1,672 nt of DNA from Escherichia coli (GTDB lineage: Bacteria; Pseudomonadota; Gammaproteobacteria; Enterobacterales; Enterobacteriaceae): NCBI RefSeq assembly GCF_003334355.1, contig NZ_QOWP01000082.1. The stretch is one strand, 5' to 3'. The translations under genes were made by a program, and so were the position numbers. The notes below the pieces were generated by a model. That model worked only from the letters and a program-made list of their open reading frames with translations, was not told the origin of the DNA and did not search any database. This document shows, piece after piece, positions 1-1,672 of this stretch. Positions within the stretch are counted from its first letter, which is position 1. Every line of letters starts with the position of its first letter.

Positions 1-54
1 TTGTCTGTAATCGGGGATAATAGAAATATGTTCCATCAATTTTTTAAGTTCCAT
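1..54 (-). CDS. ISAs1-family transposase (H-repeat-associated protein, ORF-H), N-terminal 18 codons only; CDS continues beyond the left edge (5' end in window, 3' partial).
   Basis: Minus strand reads TAAGGAGAACAAA ATG GAA CTT AAA AAA TTG ATG GAA CAT ATT TCT ATT ATC CCC GAT TAC AGA CAA = MELKKLMEHISIIPDYRQ. This matches the N-terminus of E. coli H-repeat / ISAs1-type transposases (YhhI/YdcC/YbfD-like) as I remember them. Consensus SD AAGGAG sits 6 nt upstream. H-repeats are classically found next to Rhs elements. Too short to appear in the ORF track. Confidence 0.65.
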   Translation of the reverse strand, partial: MELKKLMEHISIIPDYRQ

Positions 55-60
55 TTTGTT

Positions 61-66
61 CTCCTT
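61..66 (-). promoter_or_regulatory. Shine-Dalgarno (AAGGAG) of the ISAs1/H-repeat transposase gene
   Basis: Plus-strand CTCCTT at 61..66 is AAGGAG on the minus strand; 6-nt spacer (AACAAA) to the ATG at 54..52. Confidence 0.55.
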
Positions 67-161
67 AATTATGTAAGAAGTATTTGATCATGTATAAGCA
101 ATAAAAAACAGCTTCAGGTAATAAGGAATATCTCAATTTTTAAACATAAAATGCGAATTAT

Positions 162-545
162 TTAGTGCAAAAAGTGAACTTTTGATGATCTTTCCCTGGC
201 CGTTGACTTGATTGCCGTAGCTCGAACGCAAGCACTCTTATCATTCAATGCCATATTGTTCAAAATATTAAAAACATTATCTTCGCATTTTTTGCAAATT
301 TATATTTGCCCGAGTATAAATGCTCCGATATCTCTACGGATATAATTTTTGTCAGTGCAGAATTCAATTGCCAATCTAACAGCGTCTTGCCCCCCTCTTA
401 ACTGTAATACTCTGGCAGATGAAATCCTTTTCAAGGAATTGCGATCATCAAGTAAGCGAAATAATTCATCATCATTTAGTTTCTTACATTTATTATATAA
501 ACCATACTCTTTACTTGCCTTTCTTTTCTGGTATGTATTTGACAT
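162..545 (-). pseudogene. yibA: yibA-like HEAT-repeat protein gene (Rhs-associated, putative orphan immunity gene), disrupted. The intact ORF 545->300 encodes only the N-terminal 81 aa; an in-frame TAA at 302..300 is followed by 45 more in-frame codons to a second stop at 164..162.
   Basis: Translation MSNTYQKRKASKEYGLYNKCKKLNDDELFRLLDDRNSLKRISSARVLQLRGGQDAVRLAIEFCTDKNYIRRDIGAFILGQI* matches the N-terminus of E. coli YibA (about 280 aa, HEAT-repeat protein) as I remember it. After the TAA the same frame reads ICKKCEDNVFNILNNMALNDKSACVRATAI..., which continues the remembered YibA sequence (a Lys codon there in K-12), so the stop looks like a nonsense substitution. Strong SD GGAGG at 558..554, 8 nt upstream of ATG 545..543. 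The track ORF 300..560 starts at an ATG that overlaps the SD and is less likely the true start. Confidence 0.75.
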
Positions 546-553
546 TGCAGGAA

Positions 554-558
554 CCTCC
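554..558 (-). promoter_or_regulatory. Shine-Dalgarno (GGAGG) of the yibA-like ORF
   Basis: Plus-strand CCTCC at 554..558 is GGAGG on the minus strand; 8-nt spacer (TTCCTGCA) to the ATG at 545..543. Confidence 0.6.
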
Positions 559-649
559 ATAAAGGCTATCTTTTTCTATCGTTTGACTGTCTGGAGTCCT
601 CCACCTACTCTGCCATCAGCGCACACGATGTTTGATTATCCTTACATAC

Positions 650-1033
650 TTATTTTCCGTGGCCAAAATTCAGAATTCTCCCATCATTTTTGCCTATTTC
701 TATAATAAAAACCCCACCAGCAATTTGGTCTGAGTGAATGGTACCTTCAACAACCCAACTTGTTGTTAACTCAGTGATTTCGTATGGTTTTTCTTCTTCT
801 GCGGCATCCTGTCCATAACGATTCTTAACATATATCTCAGCTAATTCCAATGCTATAGCTTTATTTTTAACCAAATTTCTAACGGTATATTTACCTTCAC
901 TTTCATACTTGCGCATTATTTTAATATTATTATTACACTGCGCCCATGTGTTGTATGTAAAAACAAACAAAGATACAATGACACAGTTCCTAAACAATAT
1001 TTTTTTACATATTACCATGAACTCTGCAGACAT
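650..1033 (-). CDS. Putative Rhs immunity protein (RhsI-like), 127 aa, with predicted N-terminal Sec signal peptide. Alternative start at ATG 1018..1016.
   Basis: Six-frame ORF immediately downstream of the rhs CT, overlapping its last codons by 29 nt (1005..1033), which is the typical rhs/rhsI arrangement. AAAGGA Shine-Dalgarno at 1046..1041, 7 nt upstream of the ATG. N-terminus [31 protein letters not shown]|QC has a basic n-region, an 11-residue hydrophobic core and a T-W-A cleavage-like site. The mature part contains ...[19 protein letters not shown]...[16 protein letters not shown]..., which resembles small immunity-type proteins but is not assigned to a family. Confidence 0.7.
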
Positions 1034-1672
1034 TAGGTAATCCTTTTCTGTTTGTTATTTCCTTCCCGTGGTTATCTATTGCTTTAAAATTACCACTGGG
1101 CGTACCTAAATAAAATGACTTGATATTGTTATCTTTACTTTTAACTATTTTCTCATCTTTACCTGAAAATATTTCGTCCCAATATTCTCCATGACTATCT
1201 GCACCATGAGTATGATAAGCTGATACTTTCTCAGTACCATTAGGGCAAGGGCTATTGAATGGATATGATCCTTTTCTTTCTCCTCGGTTAGGTGCTGTTG
1301 AGAAATATCTGCCACTATTATCCTTACATATTAAACCAGCGAACTCTTTATCTTCGCAAATAGATTGGCTATTTATTTTATTTAAGGCGTCATATGCGGT
1401 GCTATCTATAGAATCAAATTTATCTGGACCTATCATAGCGGATAGTGTGCCGCAAAGACCATTAGTACATGCCCCCGATTTTGCATCCTCCCACATAGAT
1501 AAACCCAGGGGGTCGATGTCTGATATCGGATTCAATTGATATCCATACAGGTTCCATCCCCCCTTCAGCCCAATCGGATCCTGAGTGATATATCGCCCCT
1601 GCAGCGGGTCATAATAGCGGTGGCGGTTGTAATACAGGCCGGACTCCTCATCATACTGCTGCCCCGGCAGGC
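1005..1672 (-). CDS. Rhs-family polymorphic toxin, C-terminal portion (3' partial; CDS continues beyond the right edge). Conserved core end is followed by a 164-aa variable C-terminal toxin domain of unrecognised family.
   Basis: Minus-strand frame is open from 1670 to the TAA at 1007..1005. It translates to [57 protein letters not shown], then [18 protein letters not shown]...NVCRVHGNM*. The YDPxxGRYxxxDPIGLxGGxNxYxY...PxxxxDPxGL pattern is the Rhs repeat-associated core end that demarcates the variable CT (DPLGL = 1514..1500). The ORF track starts this ORF at 1535 only because it reads a TTG Leu codon as a start; the frame is open upstream. GC is about 59% in 1561..1672 versus about 33% in 1021..1140 (counted by hand). 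Confidence 0.9.
1041..1046 (-). promoter_or_regulatory. Shine-Dalgarno (AAAGGA) for the putative immunity gene, embedded in the 3' end of the rhs coding sequence
   Basis: Plus-strand TCCTTT at 1041..1046 is AAAGGA on the minus strand, 7 nt upstream of the ATG at 1033..1031. Confidence 0.5.

Follow-up and report, generated by a model that had tools for sequence, protein, structure and literature searches.

The question raised by this stretch of Escherichia coli DNA (1,672 nucleotides of contig NZ_QOWP01000082.1, hereafter the window) is whether an open reading frame listed near its right edge is a gene in its own right or the visible tail of a much longer one and, if the latter, how its product might be delivered. 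The mechanical ORF listing gives 176 aa on the minus strand (1005..1535) with TTG as the start codon. A sequence-only reading of the window had proposed instead that this 'M' is a TTG leucine codon, that the frame stays open to 1672 while encoding the conserved end of an Rhs core, and that the listed ORF is the tail of a multi-kb rhs gene. The first two proposals were confirmed by translation: the minus strand from 1670 to 1005 encodes 221 residues, stop-free up to the edge, in which the TTG at 1535-1533 is the internal Leu1236 of RhsB. Bases 1671-1672 are part of a codon cut by the window edge, and the other two minus-strand frames both contain stops within 1500-1672. The features discussed below are collected in Table 1.

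Table 1. Features of the 1,672-nt window (position 1 is its first base; residue numbers are those of full-length RhsB)
Feature	Coordinates	Strand	Basis
rhsB core end: its final 57 codons and 2 bases of the codon before them, which is cut	1500..1672	-	RhsB residues 1191-1247
First DPxG motif, DPIG, RhsB 1221-1224; Asp1221 (1580-1578) is the predicted first catalytic aspartate	1569..1580	-	sequence and PMC10684867
TTG codon taken as ORF start; internal Leu1236 of the RhsB core	1533..1535	-	translation
PxxxxDPxGL core-end signature, RhsB 1238-1247; Asp1243 (1514-1512) is the predicted second catalytic aspartate	1500..1529	-	sequence
Predicted self-cleavage, after Leu1247 (1502-1500) and before Ser1248 (1499-1497)	1497..1502	-	Tse5 alignment
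RhsB C-terminal toxin domain, DUF4329 / Tox-JAB-2, 164 aa	1499..1008, stop 1007-1005	-	PF14220 match
JAMM-type residues E1299, H1343-T-H1345, S1359 and D1362	1346-1344; 1214-1206; 1166-1164; 1157-1155	-	
yhhH, cognate immunity gene, 127 aa	650..1033	-	Pfam Imm-NTF2-2 PF15631, E=3e-26; RefSeq annotation YhhH
yibA-like HEAT-repeat remnant (pseudogene yrhC in K-12), N-terminal part only, cut by ISEc1	about 195..560	-	annotation as pseudogene
End of ISEc1 (H-repeat) element; start of the yhhI transposase at 54, its remainder lying beyond the left edge	1..198	-	annotation

The 57 residues encoded by 1670..1500 match positions 20-76 of the 76-position NCBIfam profile for the RHS repeat-associated core domain, TIGR03696 (79 bits, cut-off 32.5 bits, E=2.3e-22), and, with E=7e-32, the final stretch of 57 positions (1205-1261) in NF041261, the RHS_core equivalog. 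As profile matches these are far beyond chance, and the proposed Rhs core end is thus indeed encoded here. It closes with DPLGL (1514..1500), coordinate 1500 being the last base of the Leu codon, and is followed directly by SMWED. Exactly 18 residues separate DPIG from DPLG, so that the DPXG-X18-DPXG motif, described as the aspartyl-protease signature of enterobacterial Rhs proteins (PMC10684867), is present; the region is the C-terminal 'plug', or aspartyl-protease region, of the Rhs shell. At the DNA level, K-12 rhsA, rhsB and rhsC are nearly identical to the window from the right edge (1672) to about 1551, diverge gradually across the DPxGL codons and lose similarity left of 1500. After DPxGL come a variable DUF4329 C-terminal domain (CT) and then the small immunity gene yhhH, the layout of Rhs polymorphic toxins, and by this alignment pattern position 1500 is a classic polymorphic-toxin core/CT junction.

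The identity of the locus was established by Megablast against 5,426 complete E. coli genomes. All 1,672 bases of the window are found at 99.8% identity in E. coli chromosomes, which is the best match, none of these genomes holding it at 100%, and the aligned genomes carry annotated rhsB, yhhH, a HEAT-repeat pseudogene and yhhI over the window sequence. Compared with strain EC-129, the window differs by three SNPs only, at positions 78, 209 and 1569; the translation in the RhsB frame is the same in both, so the change at 1569 is synonymous. Read as it is transcribed, which in the window means from right to left, the EC-129 locus has the order nikABCDE-nikR, rhsB, yhhH, pseudogene and yhhI, and rhsB there is 4236 bp long and encodes 1411 aa. 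The same arrangement is found in K-12 MG1655 (b3482 rhsB, b3483 yhhH, yrhC, b3484 yhhI), so that the likeness to the K-12 RhsB element is one of gene order and neighbours. In K-12-lineage records (DH1, a K-12 strain) the CT segment 1005-1535 is 100% identical to the window, and the K-12 rhsB core end is near-identical, with few SNPs. At 1671 and 1569 the window has synonymous differences from K-12 rhsB and carries the bases of K-12 rhsA and rhsC, an observation consistent with gene conversion among rhs paralogues. The locus is thus the classical, long-described RhsB element of E. coli, and its toxin and immunity families have already been catalogued.

Because 99.8%-identical complete genomes carry a 4236-bp rhsB at this place, the proposal that the 176-aa ORF is the tail of a multi-kb rhs is supported as well; in near-identical genomes rhsB runs 3.7 kb further upstream. 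The EC-129 protein (1411 aa) matches NF041261 with 2640 bits over residues 1-1247 and has a DUF6531 domain at 46-123. The YD-repeats that the sequence-only reading had suggested looking for in the rest of the gene were seen in these relatives, where five stretches match the YD-repeat model TIGR01643 and ten Pfam RHS repeats are found at E<=0.001. Four parts can be distinguished in RhsB of the relatives, namely a 47-aa PAAR-like N-terminus, the DUF6531 plug, the YD-repeat shell and the aspartyl-protease plug, the last of which is the part inside the window. The 47-residue N-terminus starts MSGKPAARQGDMTQYGGSIVQGSAGVRIG. An N-terminal PAAR domain had also been anticipated, and here the outcome is divided: residues 2-29 align weakly with the third PAAR repeat of solved PAAR proteins (such as 4jiv_D and 9rce_c; E=9e-4 to 0.8), whereas no Pfam PAAR match was obtained over residues 1-1000 at E<=10. 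The PAAR-like character of the N-terminus is drawn solely from these weak alignments to one PAAR repeat and from the parallel with Tse5.

Among solved T6SS Rhs effectors, RhsB is homologous to Tse5 (E=2e-126), to RhsA of P. protegens (E=3e-85) and to others. Tse5 (RhsP1) of Pseudomonas aeruginosa (PDB 8cp6) shares with RhsB a 47-residue PAAR-like N-terminal fragment, the PVNP start of the DUF6531 plug, the YD shell, the DPxG...DPxGL aspartyl-protease plug and a toxin that follows a Leu residue. Both ends of the Tse5 shell chain result from self-cleavage, at K47/P48 and at L1168/I1169, and the second cut has been mapped experimentally and requires D1141 and D1164 (PMC10684867). When RhsB is aligned to the shell chain 8cp6_B, P48 (TSGH/PVNPLLGAK, P48 following the slash) falls on residue 1 of that chain, the RhsB core end falls on its C-terminal end and L1247 on its last residue, L1168. 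Moreover, D1221 and D1243 of RhsB, both encoded within 1500-1672, correspond to D1141 and D1164 of Tse5, and the 47-aa N-terminus equals the 5-kDa PAAR-like Tse5-NT in length and cleavage position (Tse5-NT: PMC10684867). Cleavage at DPLGL has been demonstrated in Rhs1 as well (PMC8636562). The two proteins differ in the spacing of the DPxG motifs (x19 in Tse5, x18 in RhsB), in the toxin (a pore former in Tse5, a predicted JAB fold in RhsB) and in their link to secretion: experiments connect Tse5 secretion with a VgrG and the H1-T6SS, whereas RhsB has no linked T6SS gene and is a putative T6SS cargo by homology.

By comparison with these effectors, the CT of RhsB is likely freed by aspartyl autoproteolysis. 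By homology to Tse5, Rhs1 and RhsA, Asp1221 and Asp1243 of DPIG-x18-DPLG would cut the chain after Leu1247, and the 164-aa toxin would then stay free and encapsulated in the shell. The N-terminal PAAR-like repeat may mount RhsB on a VgrG spike belonging to a T6SS whose genes lie elsewhere on the genome, the toxin would be released in a neighbouring cell, and YhhH, with its NTF2 fold, would neutralise it in the producer. Altogether, the window very probably comprises the 3' end of the core of an rhsB gene of about 4.2 kb, the CT toxin, yhhH, the yibA-like remnant and the start of yhhI; for the rhsB product, Tse5-like self-cleavage and T6SS delivery are proposed.

The toxin domain itself matches Pfam PF14220 (DUF4329) with E=1.1e-39, the alignment taking in positions 2-114 of the 116-position model. 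Its JAMM-type metal site (E1299, H1343, H1345, S1359 and D1362) is intact. Across 61 sequences sharing 29-74% identity with the query, E52 and S112 of the CT are invariant and H96, T97, H98 and D115 are conserved in at least 90%. Structure prediction yields a confident JAB/MPN-fold model, whose closest solved folds include deubiquitinase-like JAMM1, the CBASS protease Cap3 and RadC, and the toxin is probably a JAB/MPN-fold Zn-dependent hydrolase. DUF4329 corresponds to Tox-JAB-2 of Zhang et al. 2012, where it is partnered with Imm-NTF2-2, the latter being listed for E. coli only (PMC3482391); the RhsB-CT/YhhH pair, together with its ybbC paralogue, is that E. coli entry, without any difference. 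In the same work, 'nuclease rather than peptidase' is a prediction for Tox-JAB-2 (PMC3482391), and the 'RNase' label attached to DUF4329 is likewise a prediction in the secondary literature consulted; a literature search found no experimental activity for DUF4329. The CT had been called new, which was not borne out: DUF4329/Tox-JAB-2 is a known family, and this CT is present in 2733 of 5426 complete E. coli genomes, K-12 among them, with at least 99% identity in 2645. NCBIfam holds no model for the CT or for YhhH.

The immunity gene yhhH starts with an ATG at 1033 and overlaps the 3' end of rhsB by 29 nt (1005-1033), an arrangement that suggests translational coupling of toxin and immunity. 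The Imm-NTF2-2 domain spans residues 60-127 of YhhH only. The N-terminus of YhhH (within residues 1-40) is hydrophobic and resembles a signal or anchor sequence; if YhhH were exported, this would point to a periplasmic target of the toxin and would suit a peptidase better than the RNase that the literature assumes. Further downstream, the 86-aa ORF of the HEAT-repeat remnant matches positions 1-81 of the 285-position PRK09687 model ('putative lyase'). Strain 94EC carries this CT and yhhH at its rhsA locus, where they terminate a full-length rhs as its primary end and have an intact yibA of 280 aa behind them, which suggests that a CT-yhhH-yibA block moved between rhs loci via recombination through the core and yibA. 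The 94EC arrangement also led us to reject the idea that this CT lies in some strains as an orphan downstream of another rhs.

The sequence-only reading had also held that a delivery context outside the window, for example a T6SS-associated PAAR or VgrG upstream, would determine how the CT is delivered, and had proposed a search there for vgrG, hcp and eagR (DUF1795); the upstream example was not borne out. The upstream neighbour of rhsB is nikR, followed by the rest of the nik operon, and none of vgrG, hcp or eagR/DUF1795 was found within 12 kb on either side of rhsB in EC-129, nor at the K-12 locus. In both strains rhsB is flanked by the nik operon, acpT, yhhT and yhhS in one direction and by yhhJ, rbbA, yhiI and others in the opposite direction, and the sole delivery-related element at the locus is the PAAR-like single repeat in the N-terminus of RhsB itself. 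The gene is a 'neighbourless' Rhs. A 'neighbourless' class, Rhs-Nb, is credited to Ma et al. 2017 in PMC6730261 and PMC7216683, and the same literature counts rhsA to rhsD of E. coli EDL933 among the orphan or 'neighbourless' Rhs genes, which lie apart from vgrG islands (PMC7216683, PMC6730261). With the Rhs-Nb of E. coli, rhsB shares its location outside vgrG/eagR islands, and no difference was identified. K-12 and B strains are without a T6SS, yet they have kept rhsB (PMC6730261). Since no vgrG, hcp or eagR is linked, Pfam gives no PAAR match and T6SS-less strains retain the gene, we only infer that RhsB would be delivered by a T6SS, one encoded elsewhere. A literature search for experiments on T6SS-dependent delivery of RhsB found none.

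The retention of intact rhsB and yhhH in K-12, which lacks a T6SS, is also what favours another view of the region, in which the core end (1535-1672) would double as an expression signal, supplying a promoter and a start codon other than ATG, for instance the TTG at 1535, so that RhsB-CT and YhhH would be made within the producer cell and act as a pair resembling a type II toxin-antitoxin system, besides the expression of the full-length gene. There is a precedent for internal expression and for such a pair in rhs of S. Typhimurium, in which transcription starts 89 nt ahead of the codons for PxxxxDPxGL and translation from a CTG start gives a toxic product (PMC7043789); the homologous position is approximately 1618 in the window, within 1500-1672. 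Against this view, a consensus scan detected no sigma-70 promoter-like site on the minus strand at 1535-1672, and overall fewer sites than in shuffled sequence; this promoter and terminator scan returned nothing relevant in or near 1500-1672, and the conservation of the TTG is wholly accounted for by the Leu that it encodes in the conserved core. Internal expression is therefore considered unlikely here. If true, it would explain the presence of an intact 'neighbourless' rhsB in T6SS-less strains such as K-12.

Whether the full-length gene assumed by the preferred reading, an rhsB of about 4.2 kb with a cleavable CT, is intact in the source strain can be judged from its relatives. Among 3,908 records matching the 4236-nt rhsB, 40 evenly spaced rows were sampled; the best 27 of these 40 span the whole 4236-nt gene, which extrapolates to about 2,600 of the 3,908 records, compared with 2672 genomes that hold the CT. 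The gene is free of insertion sequences in 24 of the 27 full-coverage rows, and in the other three (about 1 in 9) ISEc12, IS1 (IS1A) or IS3 lies inside it. Judged by these relatives, rhsB is likely to be intact in the source. The opposite case would be that the window holds a truncated or orphan piece of rhs, a short length of core with its CT and immunity gene, which an IS, a deletion or C-terminal displacement has separated from the part needed for delivery, and thus a toxin that cannot be delivered. Such events do occur: E. coli rhs genes are commonly followed by orphan pieces of a core end (yibJ, ybfO), rhsB is interrupted by an IS in the three sampled genomes mentioned above, and the protein database holds rare DUF4329 proteins truncated to 242-287 aa and fused to IS1 fragments. 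However, the CT is joined to a full-length rhs in every complete genome inspected, at the rhsB and rhsA loci alike, and of 40 rows sampled evenly from the genomes with this CT, 39 cover the CT, each of them falling under a gene with the name RhsB or 'RHS element core protein'. Moreover, the 171 core bases in the window contain neither a stop nor an IS end, and the downstream yhhH, yrhC remnant and yhhI are the context of the primary rhsB locus. A truncated or orphan origin is accordingly given little credence.

Why the frame is cut at 1672 is probably explained by repeats at the two window ends. On the left, the ISEc1 sequence of bases 1-200 is found at a median of 5 sites in each genome; on the right, from about 1521 to 1672, the window consists of multi-copy rhs core, so that the window edge is probably a short-read assembly break. 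A contig bounded by two repeats would suffice to cut the frame at 1672, and no biology is needed. Draft assemblies have also given rise to thousands of 'partial' DUF4329 entries in the protein database, 216-255 aa long, which fit the same repeat-break artefact.

That the 176-aa ORF from the TTG at 1535 is a real stand-alone gene, as the mechanical listing would have it, can be set aside with near certainty, because the frame upstream is stop-free to the edge with codons that match Rhs core models (E=2e-22 and 7e-32) and every annotated relative has a protein of 1411 aa; the ORF was produced artificially, by taking an internal TTG as the start.

On the biological side nothing new emerges, RhsB, its core-end motif, the Tox-JAB-2 toxin and the YhhH immunity protein all having been described before. 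The lesson is one of annotation: calling genes from the first ATG, GTG or TTG after a stop, or from assemblies that break in the multi-copy rhs core, is misleading, and through such artefacts the end of a toxin of 1411 aa is recorded as a spurious 'DUF4329 protein' of 176 to 255 aa.
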